A stretch of 64,000 nucleotides of DNA from Vampirovibrionaceae bacterium NZW_1234 (GTDB taxonomy: Bacteria > Cyanobacteriota > Vampirovibrionia > Vampirovibrionales > JAGQHJ01): positions 160,001 to 224,000 of the forward strand of contig JBGUGD010000002.1 of the NCBI GenBank assembly GCA_041697335.1, written 5' to 3'. Shown here in pieces: positions 392 through 55,282 of this stretch; the first letter of the stretch is position 1, and each line of letters opens with the position of its first letter. The notes under the pieces are model-generated. The model saw only the letters and a list, made by a program, of their open reading frames with translations. It was not told where the DNA came from and searched no databases. Made by a program: the position numbers and the translations under genes.

Positions 392-1495
392 ATGTCCGTA
401 TCCGGAATTTTGTTGAAGCCTGCCATTGCTTCAGGGTTGACATTTGCGAAACGTTCGCACGATTTGGTGCCGCTTCGTTTCGGTAACCAGCCAGAAGCGC
501 GCTCGATATTGTTGGAAGGCATTCTCAATCGTGCTCAAAAGCCCCTTCCAAAAACGACCTGGGATGTGGTCGATCAATATCGCTTCTTAGGGACGATTCT
601 AGTCTGTTCGTTATTTGCGAATCTTGCACATTTGGCCAGCCGACTGATTCCCTGGTTTAAGCGCTTACAAAACAAGTTGGAAAGCTGGGCCATTTTCCAA
701 TCCTCATCTACAGCAAGTATTCAGAAGCTTGCTTCAACACGCCTGCGTGAGGAAATTGGTGAGGAACGCTACTTTACAACGCCTCAAGGGAACAAAATTC
801 ATTATTGGTATGTTCCGGCAAAAGGGGATAAGCCAACCGTTCTTTATGCGCACGGCAATTTTGGTAATATGAATCATCGTGAGTATATTATTGACCAGTT
901 TACCAAGGCAGGGTATGGGTTTATGATTTTCGATCCCCGAGGCTATGGCAATAGTACGGGGCAATCTTCGGAAGAAGGAATGTATGAAGATTACGAAGCC
1001 GCAAGCCGCCATCTGGAGAAGCGGCATCGGATTCCGTTAGCAAACCAAATTGCCGCCGGGGAATCCCTCGGAGGCGGAATTGTAACCCATGTGGCGCAGA
1101 CTCGAAAGTTCAAGGCTGTTATCTTATGTGCTACTTTTACATCAATTCCTGATGTGTTTCGGCATTTGAAGTCTCGATTTTCTTTACTGGGGTGGTTTTT
1201 ACCTTCAGAAGATAAAGTACAGCAGCAGTTTCGCTCCCTGGATAAGATTGCTAATATCAAATCCCCGCTGGTATTTATCCATGGGGACTTTGACGATGTT
1301 GTCCCAATGTCGATGACCAGACGGTTGTTTCAAGAGGCGCGCCAAACCCCGTTGAAATGTTATATTACGGTTCGAGGGGCGGAGCACTGTGTCAATGCAT
1401 TCCCCTTCGATCAATTAATCCCTCGCCTGGGTGCCTTTATCCAAAAGGTTGATGCCTTAAAAACCGCTAATAGGACTACGGATTCCGCCCGATAA
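392..1495 (+). CDS. Alpha/beta hydrolase (ABHD12/13-like) with N-terminal RFG extension
   Basis: HGNFGN, DPRGYGNS, GESLGG nucleophile elbow, HGDFDDVVP, GAEH; start moved to ATG 392 (ORF track 344). Confidence 0.85.
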   Translation: MSVSGILLKPAIASGLTFAKRSHDLVPLRFGNQPEARSILLEGILNRAQKPLPKTTWDVVDQYRFLGTILVCSLFANLAHLASRLIPWFKRLQNKLESWAIFQSSSTASIQKLASTRLREEIGEERYFTTPQGNKIHYWYVPAKGDKPTVLYAHGNFGNMNHREYIIDQFTKAGYGFMIFDPRGYGNSTGQSSEEGMYEDYEAASRHLEKRHRIPLANQIAAGESLGGGIVTHVAQTRKFKAVILCATFTSIPDVFRHLKSRFSLLGWFLPSEDKVQQQFRSLDKIANIKSPLVFIHGDFDDVVPMSMTRRLFQEARQTPLKCYITVRGAEHCVNAFPFDQLIPRLGAFIQKVDALKTANRTTDSAR

Positions 1496-1582
1496 TATCT
1501 CCTGCGTTATTCCGGAAGCAGCAAGTTATGCGCAACTTTTATCGCTTCTCCGGTTTTTATGCAGGTATAGCGTAGAGATAGA

Positions 1583-6353: not shown

Positions 6354-7679
6354 TTAGGACACTAGGCAAGAGGGTGAGTTAAGTTCCGGGAGAACGTCTT
6401 CCACCATAATGGTTTGATCACGCTCGGGGCCGACGCTGACAATTGAAATGGGAACACCGGTTACTTCCGCCAAGCGATTCAGGAAGGTTTGCGCTTCCTG
6501 TGGCAGGGCTTCAAAACGACGGATGTCTCGAACGGAACCTTGCCAGCCTGGGAAGGTCTCGTAAATAGGATCCATTTTTTCCAGCAGGGCAATATGGCTG
6601 GGGAAGGTATTCACGACTTCCTGGGTTTCACGATTCCGGTAGGCAGTACACAGACGTAGTTCTTCGAGGCCTTCAAAAACATCAAGCTTTGTAATTGCAA
6701 GGCCATCCAAGCCGTTAATACGGGCAGAGTATTTCATGGCGACCGCATCAAACCAGCCGCAACGACGAGCACGACCTGTAGTCGTTCCGAATTCAGCCCC
6801 CACGGAAGCAAGGTGTGAACCGGCTTGATCGAACAGTTCGGTCGGGAAGGGGCCAGAACCGACACGGGTGGTATAGGCTTTAGCAATCCCAATAACCCGA
6901 CTGATGGCTTTAGGACCAATGCCGGAACCGGTACAGGCCCCACCAGCGGTAGGATTAGAGCTTGTGACGAAGGGATAGGTTCCATGATCCAAATCCAGCA
7001 TGGTCCCTTGGGCCCCTTCCAGAAGAATATTTTCATTTTGCGTCAATGCATCAGCCAATACGGAATCGGTATCACTGATGTAGGGGCTCAGTATGCCCCG
7101 ATAGTGATCGCATAAGGACATCATGCTGTCGACATTGATAGGCTCCAGGCCATAAGCTTTTGTTAGTACCGGATTCTTCTGAGTAGCAATGGTTTCGATA
7201 TGCTGCCGCAAGAGGTCTTTGGGCAGCAACAGATCACCGACTCTTAAACCGATACGGCCGACTTTGTCTTCGTATGTGGGGCCGATACCTCGGCGAGTGG
7301 TACCGATTTTTCCATCACCCATACTGTCTTCCTTGGCACAATCCATGGCAATGTGGTAAGGCAAAGTCAGGTGAGCCCGAGGGCTGACGAAAAGCCGACC
7401 CAATGTTTTGTTTCGTTCCTTAAGTTCGCGAAGCTCTTTTTCCAGAACCTCAACAGAGATGACGGTTCCTGGACCGATAATGCAGGTCTTGTCTTCATAG
7501 AGAATGCCGGAGGGAATCAAGTGAAATTTATAGGTTTCGCCGTTACGAACAACGGTATGTCCCGCATTGCAACCGCCTTGGTAACGCACAATATGCTGGG
7601 CGCGTTCGGCCAAGAGGTCAATAATTTTGGCTTTACCTTCGTCACCCCACTGGGCGCCGACGATGACAACGGCAGGCAT
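6354..7679 (-). CDS. purA: Adenylosuccinate synthetase
   Basis: GAQWGDEGK, GGCNAGHT, IGTTRRGIGPTY, EGAQG, TYPFVTSS, GTTTGRARRCGWFD. Confidence 0.98.
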   Translation of the reverse strand: MPAVVIVGAQWGDEGKAKIIDLLAERAQHIVRYQGGCNAGHTVVRNGETYKFHLIPSGILYEDKTCIIGPGTVISVEVLEKELRELKERNKTLGRLFVSPRAHLTLPYHIAMDCAKEDSMGDGKIGTTRRGIGPTYEDKVGRIGLRVGDLLLPKDLLRQHIETIATQKNPVLTKAYGLEPINVDSMMSLCDHYRGILSPYISDTDSVLADALTQNENILLEGAQGTMLDLDHGTYPFVTSSNPTAGGACTGSGIGPKAISRVIGIAKAYTTRVGSGPFPTELFDQAGSHLASVGAEFGTTTGRARRCGWFDAVAMKYSARINGLDGLAITKLDVFEGLEELRLCTAYRNRETQEVVNTFPSHIALLEKMDPIYETFPGWQGSVRDIRRFEALPQEAQTFLNRLAEVTGVPISIVSVGPERDQTIMVEDVLPELNSPSCLVS

Positions 7680-12127: not shown

Positions 12128-12517
12128 TTAGGACAAGCGCTTTGGGGCGCCTTCACCTGTTTCGAAACGGTCTCGAAGGATTTGAACACCCTTGCCTAAG
12201 GCTGTTGCTAGCCAAAAAATAGCAGTGGAGGGTGTTGAATAACTGCCGACAACCGGCTCAGCCAGGGGGCGCTGATGAGGGTCGATGATGTCGATTGTTA
12301 CAGATTGGGGGGGCGACTGGTCTCGGTTGTGATGCTGAACGTTCAGATGAATACCTTCGGCATCGAGTTGGTTGACAATGCTTGCCAGGGAATGACGTGC
12401 ATTTTGAAAATCCTGAATCAGTTGGGGCCGATGATGAGGATTATAGTCATCTTCATGGGCAATGGTCACTTTGCCAAAACGCGGCAAAGGCATGAGCGAG
12501 GGGGTAATGCGGACCAT
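12128..12517 (-). CDS. Hypothetical protein with N-terminal RFG motif
   Basis: SD AAGGAG upstream; MVRITPSLMPLPRFG. Confidence 0.65.
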   Translation of the reverse strand: MVRITPSLMPLPRFGKVTIAHEDDYNPHHRPQLIQDFQNARHSLASIVNQLDAEGIHLNVQHHNRDQSPPQSVTIDIIDPHQRPLAEPVVGSYSTPSTAIFWLATALGKGVQILRDRFETGEGAPKRLS

Positions 12518-12558: not shown

Positions 12559-13212
12559 CTAATAGGGTTTCTCGGGATTGACATCCGGACGGTATTCAAG
12601 CGGGAGATTGGTGTCAGGGTGAATTCGTGGGCTGAGGCCCCCGATAGTTAGAGCAAAGCGTCGAAGCGCACTTGACATGCCCCCCAAAATACTCGGATCG
12701 TGGGTCTGAGCACTCATCGTTAAGACTTTACCTTGGTGTGTTTCCACCACCTCAGGATTGACCTTCAAGAGTTGCTGACGTCGTAACACTATGGCTGTGG
12801 GGAACAGACGAGGGAAATTGGCAAATTCGGTTTTAGCCTTTTGAATTTCGTTATCACTGGCACGTGAATAAATGCCGAGCTGGAATTCTGCCGTCGGGGT
12901 TTCAGACGGTTCCACCGGAAGCCATCGATGAATGAATGCTTTTAACGGGGCCAGGAGCTTCATATCTTCTTCATCGGTGGTGTGATCGATATACGTGCTC
13001 AGTACACGTCCTGTTGGAGTCTGTTGAATCCTGTACTGGTGTCGAATACTGTACTTTCTTGGTAAAACACTGGTAAAGGCATCCGAGGTCGGCAAGTCAC
13101 GCCAAGCGTCCAGCAGCTGCTTTTCATCCCGCCGTCGAAGGCCTTGAGGAAGTTGGATGCGAAACTCGCCACTACCAAACCTAGTCTTAGAACAAGAATC
13201 ATTTGTTTTCAT
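12559..13212 (-). CDS. Hypothetical protein with N-terminal RFG motif
   Basis: 217-aa ORF; MKTNDSCSKTRFG. Confidence 0.6.
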   Translation of the reverse strand: MKTNDSCSKTRFGSGEFRIQLPQGLRRRDEKQLLDAWRDLPTSDAFTSVLPRKYSIRHQYRIQQTPTGRVLSTYIDHTTDEEDMKLLAPLKAFIHRWLPVEPSETPTAEFQLGIYSRASDNEIQKAKTEFANFPRLFPTAIVLRRQQLLKVNPEVVETHQGKVLTMSAQTHDPSILGGMSSALRRFALTIGGLSPRIHPDTNLPLEYRPDVNPEKPY

Positions 13213-13438
13213 ATTTTGAATTTATCAGAAACGATATGCTGCGTCCCTTCCAAGCCGTGTTTTGAAAGCAGATATTTACGTTTATTCATAAACCCGCATC
13301 ATTTTTCCAGGGTTCGGTTTTATGTATGTCCCTAAGGGACGTGTGCCTTGGGTTGGGAATGTGTGCTAAGTAGACTCTGAGCTTAAGTCTCAGGGCATTT
13401 TGTATGCGTTGATGTAGTAATAATCAATAGGAGTTGAG

Positions 13439-14215
13439 ATGATGCGTTCTATACAATTATCGCCAGCCCTGGCTGGTCAGATGGCTTATTGCAATCGCAT
13501 GCCATTCACACCCAAAGAGCTGGGTTTTCGAAATATACCCGACTCCAAAGTTCTACTCGTTTCAAAAGAGGTGGGTCAGAAGTCCGACCCTGCTGTCCGC
13601 TTTGGATTAGGCCGACGCAGCTTTGTGGGTTTAATGAGTACTTTGGTGGGAGGTATGGTTTTTATCCTCTCCTCACTCATTGTTCCCTCAATCTATCGAC
13701 CTGTGGGGAATACTCCTGAACGTATTGTCTCAACCTTGCCGAAAGCAACGGGACAGGCGATTGATAACATTAAGGTGGCTAATCCCACCGGGAATCCAAC
13801 TTATAGTCAGGTTCAGGAGCAACTAAGGACAGCACACCAACAATTACAGAATGACTGGAAGCCTGGACAGGGTAATGCGATTCCCAATTTAGAAAAACTT
13901 TCACCGGCTGAGCAACGGGCCACCAATGAATCTCTAAACCGGATGCTTCGTTTGGTTCGGTGTCGCCATGCGGGTGACATTGATCTGGCTCGTAAAGAAT
14001 ATATTCGCTGGACCCAGGATGTCCTGGCAACTCGGGTGGATGCTGAAACCCTGCGAGCTGTTCAGGACTATGGCACTGAGGCACTTGGACCTGTGTCCAA
14101 CGAATTTGATGCCCAAGCCAGAGTATGGTTCATCATTGCGGCTGGTATTGGTGTTGCTGTTGCAGGGACGGCGGCCTACAAGCTCAATCGTTGGACAAAA
14201 GATGATGATATCTAG
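13439..14215 (+). CDS. Hypothetical membrane protein (RFG motif, then RR-x-F hydrophobic segment, C-terminal TM)
   Basis: SD AGGAG; ...AVRFGLGRRSFVGLMSTLVGGMVFIL; C-terminal WFIIAAGIGVAVAG. Confidence 0.7.
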   Translation: MMRSIQLSPALAGQMAYCNRMPFTPKELGFRNIPDSKVLLVSKEVGQKSDPAVRFGLGRRSFVGLMSTLVGGMVFILSSLIVPSIYRPVGNTPERIVSTLPKATGQAIDNIKVANPTGNPTYSQVQEQLRTAHQQLQNDWKPGQGNAIPNLEKLSPAEQRATNESLNRMLRLVRCRHAGDIDLARKEYIRWTQDVLATRVDAETLRAVQDYGTEALGPVSNEFDAQARVWFIIAAGIGVAVAGTAAYKLNRWTKDDDI

Positions 14216-28527: not shown

Positions 28528-29616
28528 TTATGTGGGCAAAGACTCACTGGTTGCTGGCTTCAGCGTTGTGACGTTGTTCTTTGGGAACGGATTGGCATGG
28601 TGAGGGATAATAAACGACACGGCTTTTGGCACTACGGTAAATTCCACTGGCGTTTTTCCGATGACGTCCCCATCAACTTCAGTACGGACCGCTTGGTCTG
28701 ATGTGATGGTTACTTTTTTTGCTTTGAAGTGGGTTACGCCGTCCAGAACTTTCTTCATCAGTTTCTGAGGGGAACTGGTGAGGAGCTGATATCCGATTTT
28801 GAGGTAGTCCATGCGGTTTTGCATTCCGAGGATGGCCACATCCAAAAGGCCATCATTGGGCTTTGCGTCCGGTGTGAAGGAAAAGGGGCCCAGGAGCTTT
28901 CCGGCGTTAGCCACAAGGACGGCAATGCCTTTCTTGCGAATGAGTTTGCCATCGTCGGTTTCAATGTTAAAGGTGACAATCGGACTTGAGAACAATTGGG
29001 TGAGTACGGATTTGACATAGGCCAGCTTGCCGAACCAGCGTTTTTCTGTGCGTGTGGTAGCCTCCATGATGTCGGCATCCAGACCGGCACCGCCCATCAT
29101 AATACAAGGTTCCTTGCCGTTGGCCATTAAAATGTCGGACTCGAAACGCTTACCGGTAAGTAGAGTTTGAAGTCCTTCTTTTAAAGAGGTTGGGATTCCC
29201 AATTCCGTAGCAAAAAGGTTGCCGGTACCTCTCGGCAGGACGCCAACCGCAATGCTGGGATCTTTAAGGGGTAAAAGAGCTTTAATAACCTGACGGATAC
29301 TGCCGTCACCACCAATGGCTACCACTGTATTCAATTTATCCTTGTGCTGGGCAATCAAGGTCTGCAAGTCTGCAGGGTTCGAAGTCGCTTTAACCACCAT
29401 AAAGCGGTCTTTATCTTTAGGGCGAAAGGTGTTAAGTTCGTCTTGGATTTGCTGATCGAGGGGGCTGTCGCCCACACCCCCGGCTTGGGGGTTTACCACC
29501 AACATGATCTTGTTTTTGCTGTGGACCTGTGGCGCTGGGCTCTGGCTTGCAAAACGGATGAGAGATGGGTTGGGTCTGATCTTTGTAAGGGCTGTTGTTA
29601 TTGGGGAAGTCGCCAT
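28528..29616 (-). CDS. Diacylglycerol kinase family (YegS/DagK) lipid kinase with N-terminal RFA extension
   Basis: VVNPQAG, IGGDGS, LPRGTGNLFA, GAGLDA, PDAKPNDGLLDV, EVDGD. Confidence 0.9.
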   Translation of the reverse strand: MATSPITTALTKIRPNPSLIRFASQSPAPQVHSKNKIMLVVNPQAGGVGDSPLDQQIQDELNTFRPKDKDRFMVVKATSNPADLQTLIAQHKDKLNTVVAIGGDGSIRQVIKALLPLKDPSIAVGVLPRGTGNLFATELGIPTSLKEGLQTLLTGKRFESDILMANGKEPCIMMGGAGLDADIMEATTRTEKRWFGKLAYVKSVLTQLFSSPIVTFNIETDDGKLIRKKGIAVLVANAGKLLGPFSFTPDAKPNDGLLDVAILGMQNRMDYLKIGYQLLTSSPQKLMKKVLDGVTHFKAKKVTITSDQAVRTEVDGDVIGKTPVEFTVVPKAVSFIIPHHANPFPKNNVTTLKPATSESLPT

Positions 29617-29870
29617 GACGCAATTTATTCCTATATAGTTTCCTGTTCTATCAAAGTCCAATGTCCTGATCCATCAATGCGGCTCAAGGGAACTTTTTGA
29701 TAGCCAAGGGCGAGGATGTTACGACATGTGAAAACTTTTGTTCGTGTTTTGCCACGTTATCAAAATCTAATGAACGACATAGCCCGCTGGTTGTAGGATT
29801 AAGCCAGCGATTGGGGATCTTTTTGGGGATAAGGTCAGCGCTTGAAATCGTAAAAATGCAAACAGAACGT

Positions 29871-30275: not shown

Positions 30276-30458
30276 CGTGCGAACGGAGTACTAATCTCTT
30301 GCTCATTTAATCAAAGACCTGACTCAGCCGCTATTCCCCAGATGGTTAGCGGTAAAACTGCATGAGGCAATTTTGCCGGTTGAGGATTTTTATACAGGGA
30401 ATACACCTCCCCACTCGCTTTTTTGCTGTACTGTTCTTGAAATCTAGGAGAGAGTTTT

Positions 30459-30986
30459 GTGACGCGTTGTTCATTGTCTGTGGCCAGTGCTGTGCGTTTT
30501 GCAGCCAATCGCCAAGTGTTAATTGTTGACTCCTATGCCTCGAAACTGCAGAGCTTTAAGCAGTGTCTTGAGTACTGGGAGGCGAAAACCCCTCTTCCAA
30601 ATGGTGATAAGGTGGACGTCCAAGGGGCGACCACTCAGGAAGAGGCATGGCAGGTCCTTGAAACGAAACCAGTGGAGGTCGTGGTAACTTCCAGTAAATT
30701 GCCGGAGCTAGGTGACGGGTTAAGGTTTATTCGGGATATTCGGGCGCGGTTGGGGAAACAACCCTTGGTGGTAATGTGGACCTCGGATCCCTATATGACG
30801 GATGCTCAGGTGAAAAATGCCGGAGGTGACGCATTCTTTACCAGTATGAGTTCTTTTCGTGCTATTTGGACAGCATTATCATCGCATTTGCATAGGGGGT
30901 CCAATCAAACTTCAGATCGGGGCATCGCTGGATCTCAGGTTAAGAGAGAAGAGTCAGGAGATATTACAGGAGGCGATCTGGTTTAG
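30459..30986 (+). CDS. Atypical response-regulator receiver domain protein with RFA leader
   Basis: VLIVD, EAWQVL, LPELGDGLRFIRDIR, VVMWTS, AGGDAFF; phospho-acceptor Asp position reads Ser; SD AGGAG. Confidence 0.7.
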   Translation: MTRCSLSVASAVRFAANRQVLIVDSYASKLQSFKQCLEYWEAKTPLPNGDKVDVQGATTQEEAWQVLETKPVEVVVTSSKLPELGDGLRFIRDIRARLGKQPLVVMWTSDPYMTDAQVKNAGGDAFFTSMSSFRAIWTALSSHLHRGSNQTSDRGIAGSQVKREESGDITGGDLV

Positions 30987-32532: not shown

Positions 32533-33522
32533 TCAATTGTTTATAGTGGCGTCTTTTTGCCCTTTATACTCGTCGTACTCCTGGAGTAGCAGGTTGACAT
32601 AAACAGAGCCCACTCGTTTAACCAAGGCTTCGTGAAGCTTTTGTTCTGCTCGTTCCTGGGACTGGTCTTCCTTATGGCGTTTAACGCCGATTTCAAAGCG
32701 ATCGAGACGCTGGGTGGTCTCCGACTCTAAGTTGTCCAGAAGGGGCTTTAGGTCCTGGATGAGTTCCTGGCGCTTCGGGTGGCGAACAATAGCGTATTCC
32801 AGCTGGCGTCGGTGATCCAAAAATTTTAATTGCTTGAGCAAGGCTGGCAAGGTTGGGTGTGACGGGTGACTAAACCAATCACCTTGACGTATTGCTCGCT
32901 CTACACGGCGTAACCCCGAGCGGGCCACCGTGGTCAGACGATCACTCGGAGGTTCTTTATATACCATAGCTGACAAGACATTCGTATCTTGAACGGCATT
33001 TTCATCCTGGATTCGGGAGGCGATGTGCTGGACTTTTTCCAGGTGGGTCATCCACTTGCGCCCAAAACGCCGTATACGTTCAAAGTCCAGCTTATCGTCT
33101 TCGGTCAGAAGCGGGGTTTTCAGTGGAAGCAGGTCCCGGTGTTTCCCTGCCCAAAATTGTGGCGTCTGAAGTAAAAAGGCGGCATGTGCGAATTCTTTAC
33201 GACGTTTGAGATCGGTGGGATGCCATGGATCGGCTTCGGCTTCCAGTTCAGCTCGAAGCCTATTAAACGCGTCCTCCGTTTTGCATGCCTGGGTACGGGA
33301 GAAAATATCTGCCCGCTCTTCAGCTGGAAGGAAATGTCCTGGTAAGGGGGCAAGAAACCGATTGATCCCGCGTAGATCACTGTGCCCCAAATTGGGTAAA
33401 AAAGGGGGGGGATCATTATTGGAGGGATCGTTCTCAGACTTGGTGCCAAAGCGAAGAGCGTGAGAAGCGAAAGGGGAAGGCCATTTATCAACCTGGCGCA
33501 TGCCTGGCAGAGAAATCCTCAT
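32533..33522 (-). CDS. Hypothetical helical protein with RFG leader
   Basis: MRISLPG...HALRFGTKS; long open frame. Confidence 0.65.
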   Translation of the reverse strand: MRISLPGMRQVDKWPSPFASHALRFGTKSENDPSNNDPPPFLPNLGHSDLRGINRFLAPLPGHFLPAEERADIFSRTQACKTEDAFNRLRAELEAEADPWHPTDLKRRKEFAHAAFLLQTPQFWAGKHRDLLPLKTPLLTEDDKLDFERIRRFGRKWMTHLEKVQHIASRIQDENAVQDTNVLSAMVYKEPPSDRLTTVARSGLRRVERAIRQGDWFSHPSHPTLPALLKQLKFLDHRRQLEYAIVRHPKRQELIQDLKPLLDNLESETTQRLDRFEIGVKRHKEDQSQERAEQKLHEALVKRVGSVYVNLLLQEYDEYKGQKDATINN

Positions 33523-33887: not shown

Positions 33888-36800
33888 ATGAAAACGGGTT
33901 TATTTCCGGCTCTTGGTTATCAAACTCCTTCTCGGCTGTTTCGAGGGGGCATGGTGAATGCCTCTCTTTCATCTGACAATTCAGGAGTCATGTTTTCAGG
34001 CAATCGACGTCCTCATCCAGCAACGTACGAATCAGCAGAGAGCCTTAGGGGGCTTTGCGAGCAGTTGGGTCAAACCCACGCTCATAAGCGTTTTAACAGT
34101 CTTATTGAGCGTATTATTGAGGGCTTGAAGGCGAATTCAAAAATTGCCCCGGAGGATCGCATTGCCATTTTAACGGCTCTGGCCCCCCGGGTTCGTCGCT
34201 CAAAACATGTCAGTCAAGTGGGGCAGCTGATTCGTAATCAACCGGAATCGCCTGAAAAAGTGGCATTGATGGCTCAGTTCTTTGCCCCTGCCTCATCGGT
34301 AAAGGTGCCGTCCAAACCGGTTCTCGAAACGAAGGAGCAATTGCTGGCCTATTTCCCTGAGATGGTCAAGCAATTCAAGCGTCGGGTAGATACCACCTTT
34401 TTTGAAGCTCTGGGCAAGCTGCCTGAAATGGAGCAGATGGAGGTTATTGCCACTTTTGCCCGTAAACCCAACCCTCATGAAATTACCCGAGCCCTGATTG
34501 ACGCCATTGATAAATTCCAGGATCCCTTTCATAAGGCCTATGCCTGGCGATCTTTCGAGGGGCTGAGTGATAAATTGCTGGTGGGACTGATTCGGGAAAA
34601 AGCGAAGCGTTTGAAAAATCCTGTAATTTTAGCCGACATTGTTCGGACTTTTCCCCAGGATACGGATGAGTCGCTTTTGGAGACGCTGAAATCTTTTGTA
34701 AGCCAACCTCACAAGGAGCGGCTTCGCGCTCTGTCTGTTGGTGAAACTGTCTTCAAACGCCCCGATGCCAGGTTTACCTTGGCTAAAACATTTGCAACCG
34801 ATAGTTACTTGGCAGTGGGTTTAAAAGCCCTTTCAATAACGGAAGGTATTAAACCCGAAAAACGTTTGGATGCGATGCGAGCTGATTATCTGAAAGCATT
34901 TGCTCGCAGTCCGCATGCCCAGGTCCGTTTTGTGGCTCTCCTCCGAGCGTCCTCTCTCGCCGGGTCTGATCGCTTGGACACCCTCAAAACTTTTGCCCAA
35001 AATCCTGATTTGATGCTGGACATGAAGCCGGATATTCGGCACAAAACCCAACGTCTCTTTTTTAATCATCCCGAAGTCCTTCCATTTGTTGCGGATGAGG
35101 ATTTGAAATCCCAAGTGCTCAGAATGCTAGCTGCGTCCAAAGAGATGGCAACGTTGCATATGGTCTTGGATCAGTCGGCTACGCTGAAGCAGGAAATGTA
35201 TCGTATGCCGGTGTTAAAAGAAGTCATCCATAATGCAGCCTTGAGCAAGGCCATTCAAAGTAGTGGTGATTTCCCTCGCCTGTGGACAAAGATTTTGGCC
35301 AGTGTAGAAGGCTTAACTCAAGATAATTTGAAGTCTTTGGGCTTGGTGAGTCTGATGACTCACGTGGTTGCTCAGTCAGATTCCCCAATGGACGATAAAG
35401 GCTCGCCCATAACGTTGCCTCCCAATCGGATCGTTTTACCCAAAGATGCATGGCTTGCTTTTCAGGCTAAAGCCCTGGCCATGGAGACGTCGATTCAGGA
35501 TGACGGCTGGAAAGCGAAAGCCTGCCAGGCTTTCGTGAATATGCCTTTAGACACCCTGCAAAAAGCATTGGCTGCTTGCACCGGAATTACGGATCCCCAT
35601 GCTTTGGCCTCTCTGGTCAGTACTTTTGCCCATAATCCGGATGAGCAGATAATGAGCCTGCTGCAGCCCATGATATTAGCCCTCAAGAAATCGTCCCAGC
35701 AGGAGTTTGCAACAGCCCTAATCTCTCTCGCCAAGAATCCTAATGAAGCTGCCCGCTCTTTTGCTGTCGGCCAGATTAAGTCTGTTTCATCAGGGCCTCA
35801 GAAAGCAGCAGTTATTCAAGCCTATCTGGGAGATCCTTCTGATGCTGTTCGTGGGATTACGGAGCAGGCCTACCAGGAGAACAACACCAGTGATACCTTC
35901 CGTCTGAACATGGCCGTGGCGGCAAGTAACAATCCCAACCCTGTTGTACGAAATACCGGTTTCTGCAACCTTTGGGTGGTCAAGGATGAGCACGCGGTGG
36001 CCCAGGCCCTACGCTATTACATCGATGATCCGGATAAAGACATACGTGCTACTGCTGTCCAGATGGTTAGCATCTTTGAACGGCAATCGCTAAAAGCCAG
36101 TATGTTAAAACCCTTTCTCTTTGACAGTGATCCTGAAATTGTAGAACTGGCTCGTGAAAAGGCTATGGAGATGGCTCCCAAGTGGCGGGATGAAGTTTTA
36201 TCAGTGCTTGCTCCACCGGAGGAAACGGTGAAGAAGGCAGAGCCAGTGTCTGAGAGGAAACCTGTCAAGCCAACTGCTCCAACAGTAGTACGTCCTGATG
36301 TTCAGGTGGCTGGGCCCGTCAAGCATGGGTATCGCCTGGATTATATGTTCCAATCGGCACAAACCCAGCTGCAGGAAGCGGCCCAAGGGTTTGCCGCCAA
36401 TCAGGTTTACGACCCGGCCATTTTCATGTGTCGACCCACGCAAAGTAAACGCAATTGGCTCTTTCGAAGAGATGATGCCGGGCAGCCTGCGGTTTATGAA
36501 CCAATTATGAATTCTGATTTGCGTAATCTCTCAAAGCTTCTGAAGTTACCCCAAGGCTATCCCGGTATTGAGCCCTTGGAAGGCATCTATATCTTTCGTG
36601 GCTACCAGGAGCGCTTTACCCGTGGGGGTATGGGGGCCTACCATATTCTTTTTAATCATGGACCCAATCCCTTTCCGGTGGGAGGCCAGGAGTTGGCTCC
36701 ATTAAATGGAGATAAAGACTATTCTCAATTTGTGACCCCTGAGGGCGAGGCTGCCTCTGTGGATCAGATCAGCGAGATGGTTCGTAAGGCTTTAAACGAA

Positions 36801-37145
36801 GGTTCTTTGTTGCGTTTGAAGGTGGGTAAACGCAAACTGGTTTACTTTAAGCTGAAAGGCGATAAGGAAAAGCAAAAGAACCGCTTTTATACTGTGACCA
36901 TGGAATATGCCTACCCTGATGGGCGTCAGATTGGCCGAGATATTCGGACCGGGGTGCCCTACTATAAAATGCATGTGGTCCTGGGTGTTTATCCGGGCTC
37001 CAATAAGGCATTTCTTTATACCGCCTTCCCGACGAACGGAACTGTGAATATTCCGCCGCAATTGCGGCAGGTGGTTGCTGAAGCTCGACATCGCCGTCAG
37101 GCTGTCAAGGCAGCTGCCTCTTTGAAATCGGAATCCCCAGTATAA
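33888..37145 (+). CDS. Large HEAT/ARM-like repeat protein with putative C-terminal nuclease-toxin domain
   Basis: HEAT-like units (LGDPSDAVR, NPNPVVR, IDDPDKDIRATAV, LFDSDPEIVELA); C-terminal HILFNH...SQF...IGRD...TAFP. Confidence 0.7.
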   Translation: MKTGLFPALGYQTPSRLFRGGMVNASLSSDNSGVMFSGNRRPHPATYESAESLRGLCEQLGQTHAHKRFNSLIERIIEGLKANSKIAPEDRIAILTALAPRVRRSKHVSQVGQLIRNQPESPEKVALMAQFFAPASSVKVPSKPVLETKEQLLAYFPEMVKQFKRRVDTTFFEALGKLPEMEQMEVIATFARKPNPHEITRALIDAIDKFQDPFHKAYAWRSFEGLSDKLLVGLIREKAKRLKNPVILADIVRTFPQDTDESLLETLKSFVSQPHKERLRALSVGETVFKRPDARFTLAKTFATDSYLAVGLKALSITEGIKPEKRLDAMRADYLKAFARSPHAQVRFVALLRASSLAGSDRLDTLKTFAQNPDLMLDMKPDIRHKTQRLFFNHPEVLPFVADEDLKSQVLRMLAASKEMATLHMVLDQSATLKQEMYRMPVLKEVIHNAALSKAIQSSGDFPRLWTKILASVEGLTQDNLKSLGLVSLMTHVVAQSDSPMDDKGSPITLPPNRIVLPKDAWLAFQAKALAMETSIQDDGWKAKACQAFVNMPLDTLQKALAACTGITDPHALASLVSTFAHNPDEQIMSLLQPMILALKKSSQQEFATALISLAKNPNEAARSFAVGQIKSVSSGPQKAAVIQAYLGDPSDAVRGITEQAYQENNTSDTFRLNMAVAASNNPNPVVRNTGFCNLWVVKDEHAVAQALRYYIDDPDKDIRATAVQMVSIFERQSLKASMLKPFLFDSDPEIVELAREKAMEMAPKWRDEVLSVLAPPEETVKKAEPVSERKPVKPTAPTVVRPDVQVAGPVKHGYRLDYMFQSAQTQLQEAAQGFAANQVYDPAIFMCRPTQSKRNWLFRRDDAGQPAVYEPIMNSDLRNLSKLLKLPQGYPGIEPLEGIYIFRGYQERFTRGGMGAYHILFNHGPNPFPVGGQELAPLNGDKDYSQFVTPEGEAASVDQISEMVRKALNEGSLLRLKVGKRKLVYFKLKGDKEKQKNRFYTVTMEYAYPDGRQIGRDIRTGVPYYKMHVVLGVYPGSNKAFLYTAFPTNGTVNIPPQLRQVVAEARHRRQAVKAAASLKSESPV

Positions 37146-37206: not shown

Positions 37207-37479
37207 ATGGGCCAAGGGTATTTTACTTATATCTTGGAGTGTGCCGATAACACCTTATATACGGGTTGGACCACCGATGTGGCCAAACGGGTGGAGGCTC
37301 ATAACAAAGGTAAAGGGGCTAAATATACCCGAACCCGAGGGCCGGTTCGTCTGCTGGCTTCCTGGTGCTTTGATTCCAAATCGGAAGCGATGCGCTGGGA
37401 GTGGTTTATAAAGCGTTTGCCACGTCCCCAGAAGCTGCAATTAATTCGGGACGCCTCGGTAAGCTCGAACGCAATTTAA
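37207..37479 (+). CDS. GIY-YIG nuclease family protein (UPF0213/YhbQ-like)
   Basis: [18 protein letters not shown]...[13 protein letters not shown]. Confidence 0.93.
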
Positions 37480-37548
37480 TTCAGGTATGTGTTTTGTTTT
37501 CCTAAGTTATATTTCCCAATACGGTGATTGATTGCTTAGGAGAAATGA

Positions 37549-38304
37549 TTGATGTCGTTGACTGTTTCACGTGGACATGTGCCTGTTGATGTTCGTTTTG
37601 GAGCCCGTCGCTCAGGATGGGGCTTGGGATCTGCTATGTTGCTGTTAGCTGCTTTATCCGGAGGCTGTGGCAAAAGTGGTGCTGACCGGGTGGATATCCG
37701 TCGTCCATCGGTGTCTCAGGTGTCTTCTTTCGAACAGACAGATCGGATTCCGCCGTTTCGTTTTCATGCCGTCGATCTCCTGGGTGAGCGTGTTCATGAG
37801 CCTGCAGTTACAGAACCTCGGCATCTAAACGAGCTGGGTTTTGAATCTCTTGGGAAACGTCCTGTTTTTGATGCTGTTTACGAAAATCTACGTTTGCCGT
37901 TAGTTGAAACCGGCTTTTCCGGAGTAAGCATGCGTGAAGCTTATGATAGGGAAAGAAAACGGCCAAAGCAGCGGAATCCAAAGCCTGATCTAGGCTCTCT
38001 ACGCTCAACAGCCATCGTTTGGGATCCCACCCAAAAGCAATTCTTTCTGAGAAGCCAGCGCTTTGCCTTCGATATGGCCAGTGGTGAAGTCTATCGCCGG
38101 AAGCCAGATGTTTATCAACCTTTGCCTAATGGTCCGGTTGAAATCCCTGGATTTGAGCAATTGTCGGAACAGCATAAAGCCTCTTATACCTATTTATTGA
38201 AAGATGTTGAAGTCGATAACACTAAAGGGGTATTACGTTTAGGGTATCTTGAAATTGACGGTCCCACAGGAAAACGTCAGAAACTTGACCCTGAGTCTCC
38301 TTAA
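37549..38304 (+). CDS. Hypothetical protein with RFG leader followed by lipoprotein-like signal
   Basis: VRFGARRSGWGLGSAMLLLAALSGGC; SD AGGAG. Confidence 0.65.
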   Translation: MMSLTVSRGHVPVDVRFGARRSGWGLGSAMLLLAALSGGCGKSGADRVDIRRPSVSQVSSFEQTDRIPPFRFHAVDLLGERVHEPAVTEPRHLNELGFESLGKRPVFDAVYENLRLPLVETGFSGVSMREAYDRERKRPKQRNPKPDLGSLRSTAIVWDPTQKQFFLRSQRFAFDMASGEVYRRKPDVYQPLPNGPVEIPGFEQLSEQHKASYTYLLKDVEVDNTKGVLRLGYLEIDGPTGKRQKLDPESP

Positions 38305-42494: not shown

Positions 42495-42607
42495 TGTTTT
42501 ATACTGGTTTGTTTAAATTTCCCGATGGGTGTCGGGATACCACTGACACCCCGTGAATCCCAAGCTTGAAGCAGGCTTGGGCGGACTTGGGAAAAAGGAG
42601 AAGTGAT

Positions 42608-43153
42608 ATGTTGACGACGGTGTTCACGCCCGGTTCGACTCTGAGTACGATATTGGATCCCTTGCCCGCAAATGCGCCTTATTTGCAAGGGTCGTCGTTG
42701 TTTGAAAAGACGTTGCGGTCTCAATATAATGCGATGGGAGTTTCCCCGGCCACAGTGGATTCGGCCTTTGGTACACCCAATTTTTGGGCTACACCCTTGT
42801 CGGCAGCTCCAGTGGCGTCATCGGGTTTTGTAACATCACCCCCCTACAGTATGGATTTGATTTCACAAGCGGCTTGGTTGAGTTTATCGGATTCCACGGC
42901 CTCCTCCCCGGTCGCAGATTCGTCTTCAGCAAGCGCAACGGCGAGTACTTCTAACCAGACCACAGCACCTGCGGCTGAAGTGTCTGTGTCGTCTGTAACG
43001 GATGCGGCTACCGAATTTATTCAATCTACGGCATCAGAAGTCCAATCTGCATCAAACGAAGGGCCCGGAACGAGAGGCAATGGCCTGAAATTAGGGCACC
43101 ATAAGCACGGCAATGGTGGTCCTCCAGGGCTTGCCCGTCGAGGAAATAATTAG
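42608..43153 (+). CDS. Hypothetical Ser/Thr/Ala-rich protein with shared N-terminal leader
   Basis: SD AGGAG; MLTTVFTPGSTLSTILDPLPANAPYLQGSSLFEKTLRSQYNAMG; C-terminal GHHKHGNGGPPGLARR. Confidence 0.8.
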   Translation: MLTTVFTPGSTLSTILDPLPANAPYLQGSSLFEKTLRSQYNAMGVSPATVDSAFGTPNFWATPLSAAPVASSGFVTSPPYSMDLISQAAWLSLSDSTASSPVADSSSASATASTSNQTTAPAAEVSVSSVTDAATEFIQSTASEVQSASNEGPGTRGNGLKLGHHKHGNGGPPGLARRGNN

Positions 43154-49544: not shown

Positions 49545-49874
49545 GTGATAGATGGCTGCAACCAGAAATGAGACTCTTGCCGACAGAAAGGGAAGAAGTG
49601 GTTCTGTGAGTAAATAAAAAACGAAGGGGGAACGAACAGATATTTTAAATTGAATGGATAATCATAATCACGTGATTTTGCTTGTCTTAGCGAGTGATCT
49701 TCCAAGCAGGCTATAGTGGTTGTAACAGCGTTGCCTGCGCTCCGTTTTAAAAATAATACAAGAACATCTGTTTTGAGCAATTAGCGATCTTGAGTGCATT
49801 TATTCTCTCAATGTTATTGCTCAACCGATCCGTGAGATTTCCAGTTTGCCATGCCGTTCTTAATCCATTCCGGG

Positions 49875-50486
49875 ATGATGTTAAAGCCGTCTTTCAGGTC
49901 TTTCTATGCCATACGCTTTTGTGCAGAACGGCCATCTAATTCACCTGTGAACCAGAATATCGATATAAATAATCCCAGCGATCTGGCAAAAGCTATGGTT
50001 GAGCAACGTGATGCTTTGTTGCGTTACCTGGCGATGCGACGGGTGCCTGAACACATTCGGGAAGACTGTTTTCATGAGGGAGTGTGCCACGTGCTTGAGG
50101 GAAGTTATCGCTATGATGAAAAAGAGACTCTGCAAAAATTCTTCCAGCGAGCGGTTTTTCGTGTCTGGGATCGGACTCGAAAAAGAAATTCTCGCCACTA
50201 CACAGCTCCTTTGGGCGAGATGCAAAAGATATTAAGGTCTTCCGAGGATTCACCCCAGGAACGAGCAATGATGGCGGAGACAGAGAAAGCCATTGTTGCC
50301 AAGATAAACGCCTTGCCCAAACTGGTTGCGCTGGCTTTTGCCTATCACCAGCAAGGGGACTTTACAGTGAAGCAAATTGCCGAACGCCTGGGTATTTCTG
50401 TGCAGACCTATTATCGAAACATTCGGGAGCCTTTAGAAAACCTCCAGGATGAGATCACCCGAAATCTGTTACGAGTGCCATCCTGA
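49875..50486 (+). CDS. ECF-type sigma-70 family factor with N-terminal RFC extension
   Basis: Region-2-like LLRYL...EDCFHE and region-4-like INALP...FTVKQIAERLGISVQT; start uncertain (49851-49878). Confidence 0.75.
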   Translation: MMLKPSFRSFYAIRFCAERPSNSPVNQNIDINNPSDLAKAMVEQRDALLRYLAMRRVPEHIREDCFHEGVCHVLEGSYRYDEKETLQKFFQRAVFRVWDRTRKRNSRHYTAPLGEMQKILRSSEDSPQERAMMAETEKAIVAKINALPKLVALAFAYHQQGDFTVKQIAERLGISVQTYYRNIREPLENLQDEITRNLLRVPS

Positions 50487-51147: not shown

Positions 51148-51456
51148 TTATCTGGAGCGCCGTGTATTTCGGCTCTCGGGGCCATTTTTTGAAGCACTTC
51201 GGGCAAGATAGGCTGCTATGTCTGCTCCGGTATGGATGTTCATTCCACCATCAGGTAAAGGCTCACAGTGGTAATCGGACATCACTTCCGGATCGCCGGT
51301 GATTTCAAGGAGAGTTTGTTTCATTTTTGCTCTAACGGCCGCCTCTCCTTGAACTTGGCGACAGGCTTGTGCCACTTGACGAAACTGGAGGTCGGTAATT
51401 TTTGTGGTCGCACTGAAACGAAGCGAACCGATAGAAAAGCCACTGCGAATTTGCAT
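51148..51456 (-). CDS. Small hypothetical protein with RFS leader
   Basis: SD AGGAG; MQIRSGFSIGSLRFSA. Confidence 0.65.
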   Translation of the reverse strand: MQIRSGFSIGSLRFSATTKITDLQFRQVAQACRQVQGEAAVRAKMKQTLLEITGDPEVMSDYHCEPLPDGGMNIHTGADIAAYLARSASKNGPESRNTRRSR

Positions 51457-51558
51457 GGGAATAATCTCCTGATGAGGGTGTTGAAGAGGATAACGTCTCT
51501 CAATGTTAGGAATTGCTTAAATGGGTGTTGATGCATTTCTGCTGATGACACTAAAAAA

Positions 51559-52279: not shown

Positions 52280-52319
52280 GCTCGAGTTTTTGCCTAAAAT
52301 TTCTGGGTTTTAAACAATC

Positions 52320-52368: not shown

Positions 52369-52526
52369 ATCTACATCTGTTGTTGAGGTGATAGGCTACT
52401 GATACTTTTTGCACGAAAGGTGACCTGATCATCTTGAATACGGATCTGATATGAGTTGAACGGCAACCATCACGGTTTGGACTCGTGATGAGCCCTGGTA
52501 AAAAGGCTATTTTGGGAGGTACTCTG

Positions 52527-52925: not shown

Positions 52926-53128
52926 TTCAATTCGGGTATTCCATAAGCCATTATCGTCATCCAAACTAGGTGTTGCCGTTGGAGTGACGAAATGTAACAT
53001 GGTATAACTTTTTATTTTAAAAATAATTCTAATTTGCAAGGTTTTTGTGCTACCATCCCTGCTTGCGATGAATTCGTATCCATAACGAATTCATCAGCAT
53101 CGTGATTGGGTTGATATCGTAAAGCAGG

Positions 53129-55282
53129 GTGTCATTGATGTTATTCAGTACTTCGTCTGTTCAATTTCATCTGGGGACTGGAACACTTCCGCGTTTTAGT
53201 GCCAAAAAACAAGTAAAACAGGAAACACCGGACTGGCTTCAACAGACGGATCCTGTCATACAAGCGAAGTTAGAACATTTGGATGCGCTGCGAAAAGAAA
53301 GGCCGACCCGGGTAAGTCGATGGACTCAGTTTAAAAACCGCGTATCGGAAATTGGCCGTGCTTGGCCTTTTCGTAAGGCGTTGATTTTTCTCGGCGCTTT
53401 AACCGTAGGTCTTGGGGTGTCTGGAGGAGGCGGGTATATGGTCAACCGCTTTCATCGAACGTCAGTAGAGGACTGGCATGTAGGTCGCTCTATTAATACA
53501 ACGAATGATTGGGTGAGAGAAACCACGCAAAAAAAGACGTCGTATAATTACTCACTTCAACATCTCATTGATTTTCAGGACAAGTACCGCACATTTTTAG
53601 ACAGCATCAAAACAGTGTTATCCGAGAGTAACCAAGCTGAACATCAGGCCATTGCGGCACGCATTGAGTTTAATACTGGCGTGCTGGACGCTAAGGTTAA
53701 TAGTGTAGGTACAGAGTTGTTAAAACAAGCTGCACAACGTCGTGATGCAGGGAAAAGCCTGGATGTACGCGCGTTTATTGATAGTAATCCGGCGTTTAAA
53801 CATCTTTCCGAACGCGACAAGGAAATGTTCTCCGTTGAACTCTACACCGTTCTCAATAATCATCCGGATATGACCGTGGAGAAATTTCTCCAAGAGCGCC
53901 CCACGGAGCAAAAGGACAGCAAGAAAACCTCTTCAAATCAAACACAGTCAACCTACGAATCCAATCTGCGTAAGGTTCTGTCAGTGGCTTTAGGGAATAA
54001 AATCGCCGGGGTGACCCTTGATGACTACTTGCGGGTCGATTCTAAAGAAAGTGCCATTGCCATGTTCGAGCGGGTTGCCAACCATCCCGATAATTTGAGT
54101 CATTTGTCCCCAACAGAGCGCCAGGAGTATGTTCAGGCGGCTAAAACCGTTTTAGAAAATGTACATTACGGTGAGTCTGTTCCGGGTTATGGGTATATGG
54201 CGTTGGCCTATGCCTTATTAGTGACTGGCATTGCCGGAAGTATCGCGACAGGAGCTTCTGCTGTCAGTAGCCTTAAAGAACTCCGTCAAGGTTTATCCAA
54301 GAAGCCTCAAATTACTCGGACCCCATTAACCCTGGAAGTGATTGAAAGGCCTGAGGATCAACCAGCCATTGAGGCGATGTATGCCTCTGTTATGGAACAC
54401 TGTAAGACGGCGGTTGCCCTTCGTCAAAGTGCCATGGAAAAGAACCCTGAAGTGGCTGTTTTTCTGACGCATCTGGCAGGGGGGAAGACGCCCAAGCATG
54501 ATGCCCAGGAGTTGTACGAAGCTTACAAAAGTCAAGCTCATGCCCGTTTTAACCAGAAAGGTTACCACTCGATTTCAAAGCTCCGCTTGGTCAAGGAGGT
54601 TCAAACACTCGCAGAACAAGCGACCAATAATCATGACTTCTTGCCTGAGTTGGCTGTTCTTGCTCCATCTGACGTGGTTGCTCCTCTGCGTCGACCCAAT
54701 TCCGTGTCTCTGGATGTTCGCCTGAATGCGGAAGTTCAGGATCGCACCACCAAGCTTCTGGAAGCGCAGCGGGATTACATTAATCAGCTGATTTGGCACA
54801 CCAAGCAGGAAGCGGATCATGAGGCACTTGTTTCACAGGTTACCGGGCTGGCAGAGGCGGCTAAGGGGAGAGAAACCCGTGAACTGATTCGTGAGCGACG
54901 CCGTAAAGAGATGTCAGAGAAGCTTTTGGGCGTCAACCATAATATTCTGGCCCAGCTGAAGCATCGGATCCAGGTATTGGAAGAACAATGTTTTACCTGT
55001 ACGACACTGCTGGATGAGTATCGCGATAACGAAGAATTTCGCGCAAAAGTAGCCCAGCATGCCAAGATACGCGGCGTGAACGAGGACCAGTTGAACGATG
55101 AGGACTTGAAAGAACTGGGGCTTGAAATTACGACTCGAACAGCGATGGATGCCCGAGTTCGTAAAGAGCTGGAACAGCAGCGACGGGCCCGAGAGTATGA
55201 GGAGCAGGTCCTGCGAGAAGCCCGTCAAAAAGCCGGCTCCACTGAGGCGGATTCAACGGCCGAGGGTGCCTCGGGTTCATAG
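53129..55282 (+). CDS. Large hypothetical membrane/coiled-coil protein with RFS leader
   Basis: ...TLPRFSAKK; two hydrophobic segments; charged helical C-terminus. Confidence 0.75.
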   Translation: MSLMLFSTSSVQFHLGTGTLPRFSAKKQVKQETPDWLQQTDPVIQAKLEHLDALRKERPTRVSRWTQFKNRVSEIGRAWPFRKALIFLGALTVGLGVSGGGGYMVNRFHRTSVEDWHVGRSINTTNDWVRETTQKKTSYNYSLQHLIDFQDKYRTFLDSIKTVLSESNQAEHQAIAARIEFNTGVLDAKVNSVGTELLKQAAQRRDAGKSLDVRAFIDSNPAFKHLSERDKEMFSVELYTVLNNHPDMTVEKFLQERPTEQKDSKKTSSNQTQSTYESNLRKVLSVALGNKIAGVTLDDYLRVDSKESAIAMFERVANHPDNLSHLSPTERQEYVQAAKTVLENVHYGESVPGYGYMALAYALLVTGIAGSIATGASAVSSLKELRQGLSKKPQITRTPLTLEVIERPEDQPAIEAMYASVMEHCKTAVALRQSAMEKNPEVAVFLTHLAGGKTPKHDAQELYEAYKSQAHARFNQKGYHSISKLRLVKEVQTLAEQATNNHDFLPELAVLAPSDVVAPLRRPNSVSLDVRLNAEVQDRTTKLLEAQRDYINQLIWHTKQEADHEALVSQVTGLAEAAKGRETRELIRERRRKEMSEKLLGVNHNILAQLKHRIQVLEEQCFTCTTLLDEYRDNEEFRAKVAQHAKIRGVNEDQLNDEDLKELGLEITTRTAMDARVRKELEQQRRAREYEEQVLREARQKAGSTEADSTAEGASGS

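Follow-up and report, generated by a model that had tools for sequence, protein, structure and literature searches.

The early rod and hook subunits of the bacterial flagellum carry an N-terminal hydrophobic residue together with a gate recognition motif that binds FlhBc, and this motif has to be 26 or more residues away from the N-terminal signal and 30 or more from the start (PMC8983047). Flagellar export machinery can serve other ends, as in Lysobacter enzymogenes OH11, a strain without flagella, which has co-opted its flagellar type III secretion system (T3SS) for toxin export (PMC7688988). The predator Myxococcus has a needleless T3SS* basal body together with a Tad/Kil pilus (PMC12075869). 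For Vampirovibrio chlorellavorus, the published predation model describes an attachment pad whose spike enters the prey and assigns delivery to a type IV secretion system (T4SS); the term "type III" never occurs in the accessible part of that text (PMC4451040). Gastranaerophilales have partial flagellar gene sets (PMC5877343); a full set is found in about 25% of them, and the others retain flhB, fliI, and flgG, postulated to serve secretion (bioRxiv 10.64898/2026.04.24.720558). Here, we describe an N-terminal leader ending in a short arginine–phenylalanine (R-F) motif in Vampirovibrionaceae bacterium NZW_1234, together with a second, flagellum-derived type III export apparatus that may read it. 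The leader was first noticed in a 64,000-nucleotide stretch of this genome (assembly GCA_041697335.1, contig JBGUGD010000002.1, positions 160,001 to 224,000 of the forward strand), referred to below as the window.

The leader is very probably an address label. We favor the view that it is read by the second apparatus, and assign this a probability of about 0.6. The most likely destination of the labeled proteins, given the known predator in the same order and the nature of the cargo, is a prey or host cell.

Genes were called with a custom caller, a dicodon model followed by a start model with a learned Shine-Dalgarno (SD) term, blind to the motif. The genome is 95% complete, and the called proteome comprises 2,899 proteins. 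RFG is the most enriched N-terminal tripeptide genome-wide (130 versus 25 expected, 2,156 proteins). The strict motif, [PLVI]-R-F-[GSAC] at residues 5–50, occurs in 168 of the 2,899 proteins versus 19.4±4.0 (maximum 31) in 200 composition-preserving shuffles, bearing out the positional enrichment proposed in a preliminary description of the window. A relaxed pattern matches 580 versus 332 proteins, an excess of about 250, and a mixture model assigns 341–470 proteins at posterior 0.95–0.8, with 115–149 shuffled N-termini scoring above 0.8. We estimate that about 250–350 mostly unrelated proteins, or 9–12% of the proteome, bear the leader, in line with the large accessory repertoire first envisaged, in a lineage with a known predator. 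Within the window, RF[GSAC] falls in residues 5–60 of 11 of the 48 called genes versus 1.5±1.2 (maximum 7) in 5,000 shuffles; a chance ERFA within the AhcY domain is among the 11, and the sigma factor gene, whose start was called downstream, is missing from them. The 11 motif instances and two looser variants originally listed are all in frame, and the strict motif is absent from nine of the nine housekeeping proteins named as lacking it.

The consensus is S-[PVLI]-R-F-[GSA]-[GSA], in which the residue preceding the arginine (P, V, L, or I) is part of the motif. Comparisons below use a high-confidence set of 236 tagged proteins, a comparison set of 2,164 untagged genes, and a separate held-out set of 234 model-positive proteins; FliW, LptA, YdjM, and AhcY look like single false members. 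The phenylalanine has quartile positions of 12, 19.5, and 34 (range about 5–60) and lies at or before residue 16 in 96 of the 236 leaders, and leaders extend up to about residue 50–60. The stretch ahead of the motif is rich in serine, proline, threonine, and arginine and poor in acidic residues (aspartate plus glutamate 3.5% versus 8.4%), a composition already remarked on in the window. In addition, 95% of tagged proteins have I, L, V, or M within positions 2–5, compared with 69% of others. The folded domain begins after the motif in 48 of 49 Pfam-annotated cases (compared by hand), again as first suggested. The earlier exclusion of Sec and prepilin signals also holds: a signal-peptide-like hydrophobic region occurs in the first 45 residues of 1 of the 168 strict-motif proteins versus 451 of 2,731 others. 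Only 1 of the 236 tagged proteins has a Tat-like signal and none a lipobox; the window genes at 13439 and 37549 are exceptions by eye. A second Tat or Sec signal behind the motif was rejected as a general feature, as Tat or hydrophobic signals show no excess there (25 of 236 tagged versus 181 of 1,570).

The leader is a translated, peptide-level signal. It acts at the peptide level because the coding pattern is enriched solely in frame (142 versus 27 expected) and its codons are mixed, with every glycine codon and every arginine codon except one in use. The other forward frames are at background (40 versus 33 and 63 versus 53), as is the reverse strand (108 versus 119). It is translated because ribosome sites lie upstream, with an SD-like site at 71% of the 236 tagged starts versus 57% of the 2,164 untagged. 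A downstream ATG with an SD site within 30 residues of the motif is found in just 5 of the 236.

Tagged proteins are diverse. The 236 fall into 198 families with 177 singletons, and a single shared domain behind short leaders was rejected on this count. A Pfam scan of 141 tagged proteins, those in fetched motif-dense regions, gave matches at E≤1e-5 for 49, and 39 of 60 untagged controls (60 of 120 drawn from 466) matched at the stricter 1e-12. The tagged matches include AAA proteases, ClpP, Lon, M16, trypsin and calpain peptidases, hydrolases, TPR/HEAT proteins, sigma factors, and central enzymes; further tagged cargo includes lipases, FtsH-like and Clp ATPases, a PrkA/YeaH operon, and a release-factor homolog. 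None of the 49 matches is to an ankyrin, F-box, U-box, LRR, or eukaryotic kinase domain. The repertoire consists mostly of orphans and bacterial-type enzymes and not of effectors that mimic eukaryotic proteins. Four adjoining tagged genes on contig C5 (L187:51-10206) encode PrkA, YeaH/DUF444, a second PrkA, and a ClpP with a long insertion. A eukaryotic origin of the tagged PrkA was rejected, as its matches are about 644 amino acids long, lack the extension, and carry bacterial names where named. On contig C2, a tagged 719-amino-acid RpoD-like sigma factor (L193:5883-8042), in which long stretches precede region 2 and separate it from region 4, adjoins a tagged sigma-54 activator-like ATPase.

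An untagged paralog exists for 27 of the 236 tagged proteins, and all 27 alignments start downstream of the phenylalanine. These pairs include PurA, citrate synthase, MDH, ALDH, GDH, PRPP synthetase, acyl-CoA dehydrogenase, ClpP, FtsH, and DagK; the window holds the untagged PurA and the tagged DagK. Six pairs were aligned, and what we take to be the catalytic motifs appear retained in PurA, citrate synthase, MDH, DagK, and ClpP (Ser/His). By these sequence comparisons, new copies of housekeeping enzymes are shown to gain the leader. The tagged citrate synthase sits inside the housekeeping clade of the NZW_1234 family (support 100/99, midpoint root); being a duplicate within that clade, it was rejected as a gene of eukaryotic origin. 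Among 29 other citrate synthase loci, one ortholog from another genus retains VRFGG in a dissimilar leader, and the remaining 28 lack such a leader. The preliminary description had raised a comparison with homologs from elsewhere. DagK homologs with readable starts do begin at the domain, but half of the hydrolase loci share the motif: in 28 loci from other genomes, judged by eye, the motif is present in 14, a Sec or transmembrane anchor takes its place in 8, and 6 are unclear. Motif variants among these hydrolases include PRFQG, VRFG, VQFNG, LCFGA, and others.

The genome contains two copies each of FlhA, FlhB, FliP, FliQ, FliR, FliI, FliF, and FliE, and one set forms a full flagellum. The second set (contigs C32, C8, C29, and C30) also has FliH-like, FliJ, weakly FliK-like, rod, and lytic transglycosylase genes, and covers the parts list of a type III apparatus: FlhA/SctV, FlhB/SctU, FliPQR, an ATPase with stator and stalk, and an inner-membrane ring. 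It has no motile-flagellum features of its own, that is, no flagellin, hook junction, L/P rings, or FliG switch. No second FlgH, FlgI, FlgA, or FlgK was found in the genome, where all are single-copy, and the second-set gene that occupies the place of FliG does not match FliG in Pfam. FlhA2 scores 678 bits as FlhA and 586 as SctV, both under cut-off. Neither VirB4 (two models) nor TssC was found in the genome; CesT (class I chaperone) also had no match, and control genomes were equally silent. Of the secretion systems first suggested (T4SS, flagellar T3SS, and type IV pilus), the T4SS was thus not found, and the best candidate is the second flagellum-derived apparatus, not the motility flagellum. 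TatC is present, and the genome's two secretins lie in Tad and type II secretion system (T2SS)/type IV pilus clusters and not with the second system. A Tad/Flp pilus cluster with its own secretin (L094:5729-15242, contig C2) could matter for prey contact. In the lytic transglycosylase of the second export cluster (L091:3041-3655, contig C32), TRFS stands at residue 11 and no Sec signal is present; the family f4 ortholog is without the motif.

We surveyed 151 Vampirovibrionia genomes (150 drawn plus NZW_1234) in families labeled f1–f11. NZW_1234 belongs to the Vampirovibrionales, and its FlhA2 homologs are labeled Vampirovibrio, Vampirovibrionales, and Melainabacteria; that of V. chlorellavorus is 72% identical. 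An FlhA-family gene is present in 115 of the 151 genomes (0 of 33 in f5 and 0 of 2 in f10). Flagellin and FlgI were not found in f7, the gut family (0 of 35), f8 (0 of 8), or f9 (0 of 11), all of which have an FlhA-family gene; flagellin is present in all Vampirovibrionales examined. Nearly all f7 genomes have a second FlhA-family match despite having no flagellin. In a tree of 21 sequences, the best FlhA2 matches of nine families stand apart from two flagellar FlhA (support 100/100; midpoint root, no outgroup, long-branch warning).

A family of helical hairpins of about 110 residues, starting MG(L/F)AASQAR (L217:10161-10493, L216:10475-11502, and L218:9788-10123; contigs C8, C10, and C7), is found in 73 of 73 genomes of f1–f4 and f7 and in 0 of 78 others, with 4–8 copies in Vampirovibrionales and 8–26 in the gut family. 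As a guess, it might supply the second apparatus with a needle, filament, or translocator subunit. The hairpin folds as a generic coiled coil, and fold and PDB searches (best E 0.02) gave no significant match and are not taken as evidence; its ESM Atlas matches are to hypothetical Melainabacteria clusters alone. A complex prediction with FlhA2c, FlhB2c, and the leader of the hydrolase at 392 gave no answer (score 0.00), which is neither support nor evidence against.

Motif samples from relatives covered 20–200 kb per genome. The strict R-F form gives 0–1 matches each in 24–141 genes, mostly not significant when pooled by family. A relaxed sister motif is enriched among accessory non-Sec proteins of the gut family f7 (13 of 183 versus 4.2±2.0, p 0.003) and absent from its conserved proteins (0 of 157). 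In f5, which has no FlhA, it is found in 0 of 106 versus 1.9 expected. Families f1 (2 of 6) and f2 (3 of 27) are weakly positive, and f11 (0 of 9) shows no excess. The arginine of the sister motif is not conserved in gut relatives, where S, N, T, and I variants occur. On these counts, the motif partly follows the second apparatus. The idea of a lineage-wide signal survives in the looser form; the exact R-F form, though present in several Vampirovibrionales genera, is essentially unseen in the small samples of other families. A frame-blind DNA-pattern count over the 151 genomes was noisy and was discarded as evidence.

An unbiased k-mer test recovered GCAATTT and GCAA-n10-TGAG upstream of tagged genes, and the fitted promoter-like motif, GCAA(TTT)-n-TTGAG-n-TT(T/A)(T/A)T, lies mostly 30–100 nt before the start. 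At a cut-off of >12 bits, it precedes 85 of 236 tagged versus 73 of 2,164 untagged genes and 55 of the 234 held-out model-positives (reverse strand, 16 of 236). When cross-validated and matched for intergenic gap, the counts are 27–32 of 90 tagged versus 42–64 of 1,216. The motif also precedes 7 of the 11 window leader genes, 5 of 13 tested tagged hydrolase homologs and 0 of 6 Sec-type homologs, and 5 of 13 gut sister-motif genes versus 41 of 429. A sigma-54 or sigma-28 promoter was rejected, as neither consensus matches the spacing. Two divergent FliA/WhiG-like sigma genes are present (L215:9899-10600 and contig C16:18950-19630); one adjoins flhB2, and the other has the promoter-like motif upstream. 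The pair tracks FlhA (114 of 151 genomes; 0 of 33 in f5). We infer that these sigma factors read the promoter-like motif.

The leader genes of the window, their promoter-like sites, and the related controls are as follows, with motif positions in nucleotides and F giving the residue number of the phenylalanine.

325..358, + strand: promoter-like site upstream of the hydrolase gene, 23.0 bits.
392..1495, + strand: alpha/beta hydrolase with leader, PLRFG, F30, motif 473-484.
6354..7679, − strand: PurA, untagged housekeeping control; a tagged second PurA lies on contig C37.
10916..11929, − strand: TPR-like protein with the looser variant VQFKS (F27); no promoter site.
12128..12517, − strand: orphan with leader, LPRFG, F14, motif 12473-12484; no promoter site.
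12559..13212, − strand: orphan with leader, KTRFG, F12, motif 13174-13185; no promoter site.
13290..13323, + strand: promoter-like site, 13.8 bits.
13439..14215, + strand: orphan, ambiguous member, AVRFG, F55, motif 13595-13606, followed by a Tat-like RRSFV and a hydrophobic stretch (by eye).
28528..29616, − strand: DagK/YegS lipid kinase with leader, LIRFA, F22, motif 29548-29559; domain from residue 36; untagged paralog elsewhere in the genome.
29673..29706, − strand: promoter-like site upstream of DagK, 16.3 bits.
30361..30394, + strand: promoter-like site, 23.7 bits.
30459..30986, + strand: receiver-domain protein with leader, AVRFA, F14, motif 30492-30503.
32533..33522, − strand: orphan with leader, ALRFG, F25, motif 33445-33456; no promoter site.
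33888..37145, + strand: HEAT-repeat protein with the looser variant VMFSG (F36); no promoter site.
37465..37498, + strand: promoter-like site, 17.0 bits.
37552..38304, + strand: orphan, ambiguous member, DVRFG, motif 37591-37602, followed by a lipoprotein-like signal (by eye).
49771..49804, + strand: promoter-like site, 17.6 bits.
49851..50486, + strand: ECF-like sigma-70 protein with leader, AIRFC, motif 49911-49922; start at 49851 or 49875.
51148..51456, − strand: small orphan with leader, SLRFS, F14, motif 51412-51423.
51489..51522, − strand: promoter-like site, 16.9 bits.
53138..55282, + strand: orphan with leader and one transmembrane segment, LPRFS, motif 53189-53200; no promoter site.

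The leader lengths first reported largely stand, with the phenylalanine at residue 12–30 in ten instances and at 55 in the gene at 13439, but the genes placed at 37549 and 53129 more likely start at ATG 37552 and 53138. The upstream start of the sigma gene is favored because of the promoter-like site at 49771..49804. A single-sequence fold of the receiver protein is of low confidence (pLDDT 53) and places the first strand at residue 19, and an ESM Atlas search with the protein encoded at 13212 gave no usable match.

Other features of the window lie outside the tagged set. Four Gly/Asn/Pro-rich orphans lack both a Sec signal and the R-F motif (5180-6277, 19829-20911, 41472-42338, and 42566-43153). 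Those at 19829 and 42566 have a promoter-like site (15.5 and 16.3 bits), that at 41472 has a weaker one, and those at 41472 and 42566 have N-terminal sequence in common. Tandem paralogs occupy 16095-16910 and 17016-17813, the second with a weak caspase-family (Peptidase_C14) match, and an EF-hand protein without a signal peptide is encoded at 3988-4935. A glycosyltransferase-2 gene (18503-19567) and a methyltransferase-like gene (24940-25698; by eye) were missed or scored low by the coding model; they lie in lower-GC stretches and were possibly acquired. Four sequencing runs containing at least half of the sampled words are hot-spring or microbial-mat metagenomes, and the source sample may be among them. 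No RNA dataset containing the window sequence was listed.

In the mechanism that we favor, the leader would have two parts, a small hydrophobic residue within residues 2–5 and then a floppy, acid-poor stretch ending in the consensus. The reader would be the second apparatus, comprising FlhA2, FlhB2, FliPQR2, FliI/H/J2, FliF2, FliE2, rod proteins, a FliK-like ruler, and a lytic transglycosylase, and the phenylalanine would dock in a hydrophobic pocket, either on the export gate or on some chaperone. At one life stage, a divergent FliA-like sigma factor would probably turn on some of the cargo. The cargo, consisting of orphans, proteases, lipases, sigma factors, and working metabolic enzymes, would then exit the cell, most likely into attached prey or a host.

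Like the early flagellar signal, the leader combines an extreme N-terminal hydrophobic residue with a short hydrophobic motif further in, lacks a Sec signal, and would serve unchaperoned, flagellar-type export. Unlike that signal, it has a sharp [PVLI]-R-F-[GSA] consensus, fails the spacing rule, and sits on hundreds of non-flagellar proteins. Lysobacter OH11 likewise has a flagellum-derived apparatus without flagellin, and exports hydrolytic enzymes against other microbes. However, its apparatus is a remnant of its sole flagellar system with three named substrates, whereas that of NZW_1234 is a second, diverged, class-wide apparatus beside a working flagellum, with candidate sigma factors, a promoter motif, and a consensus signal. 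The T3SS* of Myxococcus resembles it in pairing a needleless basal body with a Tad pilus, but the parts of the second apparatus are of other ancestry and include retained flagellar rod proteins. We know of no comparable substrate motif for the T3SS*. In contrast to the V. chlorellavorus model, NZW_1234 has no VirB4 match, and V. chlorellavorus itself has the closely similar FlhA2.

Injectisome effectors have Ser/Pro-rich, acid-poor, disordered N-termini without a Sec signal, form large lineage-specific repertoires, and carry chaperone-binding beta-motifs. The leader shares the composition, the lack of a Sec signal, and the large lineage-specific repertoire, but injectisome signals lack such a sharp consensus. 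In addition, no SctC-linked cluster, needle, or translocon was found, FliE and rod proteins are kept in the second cluster, and FlhA2 scores closer to FlhA. Judged by the parts compared, the second apparatus is not a member of the injectisome family. The idea of secretion by Gastranaerophilales is already in print as a remark; descriptions of the motif, the promoter, or a distinct second system did not turn up in the literature searched, mostly abstracts, and relevant entries may exist in PMC4451040's flagellar table or in the preprint's extended data.

Several observations weigh against reading by the second apparatus. The phenylalanine, at a median of 19.5, lies nearer the N-terminus than the flagellar gate motif permits. 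No needle, tip, translocon, or outer-membrane ring was identified for the second system, and T2SS/type IV pilus and Tad systems are also present in the genome. The relaxed sister pattern was chosen after the data had been seen, and 2 of its 13 matches in f7 look like chance. Families f6 (2 of 53), f8 (1 of 56), and f9 (2 of 59) have a distant FlhA2 yet no significant motif excess in small samples; the same lack of significant excess is seen in the small samples of f3 (3 of 41) and f4 (0 of 12) and in 60 kb of one further f3 genome (5 of 53 genes versus 2.6 expected). Motif and machine are common to one clade, so their co-occurrence is not independent. The promoter-like motif was not found at the structural operons of either export system, and it occurs on just 2 of 24 tagged enzyme copies versus 1 of 24 untagged counterparts.

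Among the alternatives, the leader could be an intracellular label, such as a degron, adaptor-binding, or sorting tag of a stage-specific regulon whose products stay in the bacterium, in a compartment, at the attachment pole, or in a differentiated cell type. A promoter-like motif common to about one-third of the genes suits such a regulon, as does cargo able to act inside the bacterium itself (sigma factors, ClpP, Lon, FtsH-like and Clp ATPases, PrkA/YeaH, the release-factor homolog, and central enzymes, all of which can work in its cytoplasm) and showing none of the eukaryotic-type domains named above among its 49 Pfam matches. We nevertheless consider this unlikely, as the leader alternates with Sec or transmembrane anchors in the hydrolase family, just as an export signal should, the tagged set includes lipases, proteases, and calpain-like proteins, and f5 shows no enrichment. 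We also know of no degron that would explain new enzyme copies acquiring leaders of 20–60 residues.

Export by another machine, whether Tad, type IV pilus/T2SS, vesicles, or an unknown translocon, seems to us rather improbable. The secretins in Tad-type and T2SS/type IV pilus-type clusters, the lack of a recognizable outer-membrane ring or needle in the second apparatus, and Myxococcus, which reportedly kills prey with its Tad pilus and needleless T3SS (PMC12075869), all speak for it. Yet the tagged proteins lack the Sec and Tat signals of usual T2SS and Tad substrates. Such substrates normally cross the inner membrane via Sec or Tat.

We give little credence to reading by the ordinary motility flagellum, although export through such flagella has precedents in the Campylobacter Cia proteins and Yersinia YplA, the genome has a complete flagellum, and flagellin occurs throughout the Vampirovibrionales. 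Enrichment of the sister motif is seen in f7, none of whose 35 genomes yielded flagellin or FlgI, and the flagellar genes lack the promoter-like motif. An organelle transit-peptide mimic is just as doubtful: the leader would route proteins to a host mitochondrion or plastid and be cut at R-F|S/A by a host peptidase, a role compatible with export as a second function. Leader composition and the many cargoes of enzyme types found in organelles fit this idea, and an arginine at −2 of the cut resembles the R-2 motif of mitochondrial processing sites. But the arginine is not retained in gut relatives, the 96 leaders with phenylalanine by residue 16 are too short for transit peptides, which run to about 30 residues or more, downstream Tat or hydrophobic signals are not in excess, and the tagged citrate synthase is a duplication inside its family. 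An artefact of start calling, composition, or a DNA or RNA element is largely refuted despite the custom starts and the few false members, since the signal is frame-specific, codon-diverse, SD-supported, seen under two start rules, far above shuffles, and retained in orthologs.

The leader is real and large in extent, and its reading by the second apparatus is plausible and unproven. V. chlorellavorus, which shares this FlhA2 and can be grown in co-culture, makes the proposal directly testable. The published account of how Vampirovibrio-type predators empty their prey relies on a T4SS, which was not found in NZW_1234. A consensus signal, if true, would make the effector set of every Vampirovibrionia genome readable from sequence, unlike known type III signals. 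It would also account for the long-noted partial flagellar sets of gut Gastranaerophilales, which would then belong to a secretion system in its own right, and would add another example, after the first, of a flagellum that became a secretion machine. A bolder and distinctly tentative picture is that in the Vampirovibrionia a flagellar basal body was duplicated and became, separately from the injectisome, an injection machine that has sigma factors of its own, a hairpin subunit in multiple copies, and a sharp signal. NZW_1234 would use it to deliver about one-tenth of its proteome into prey (a mat bacterium, a cyanobacterium, or an alga's organelles), running prey metabolism and transcription from outside. 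The injected cargo would then include working copies of tricarboxylic acid-cycle, nucleotide, and fatty-acid enzymes, together with AAA proteases, sigma factors, and a release-factor homolog. With a flagellin-less version in gut Gastranaerophilales, common gut bacteria would be contact-dependent parasites or symbionts.

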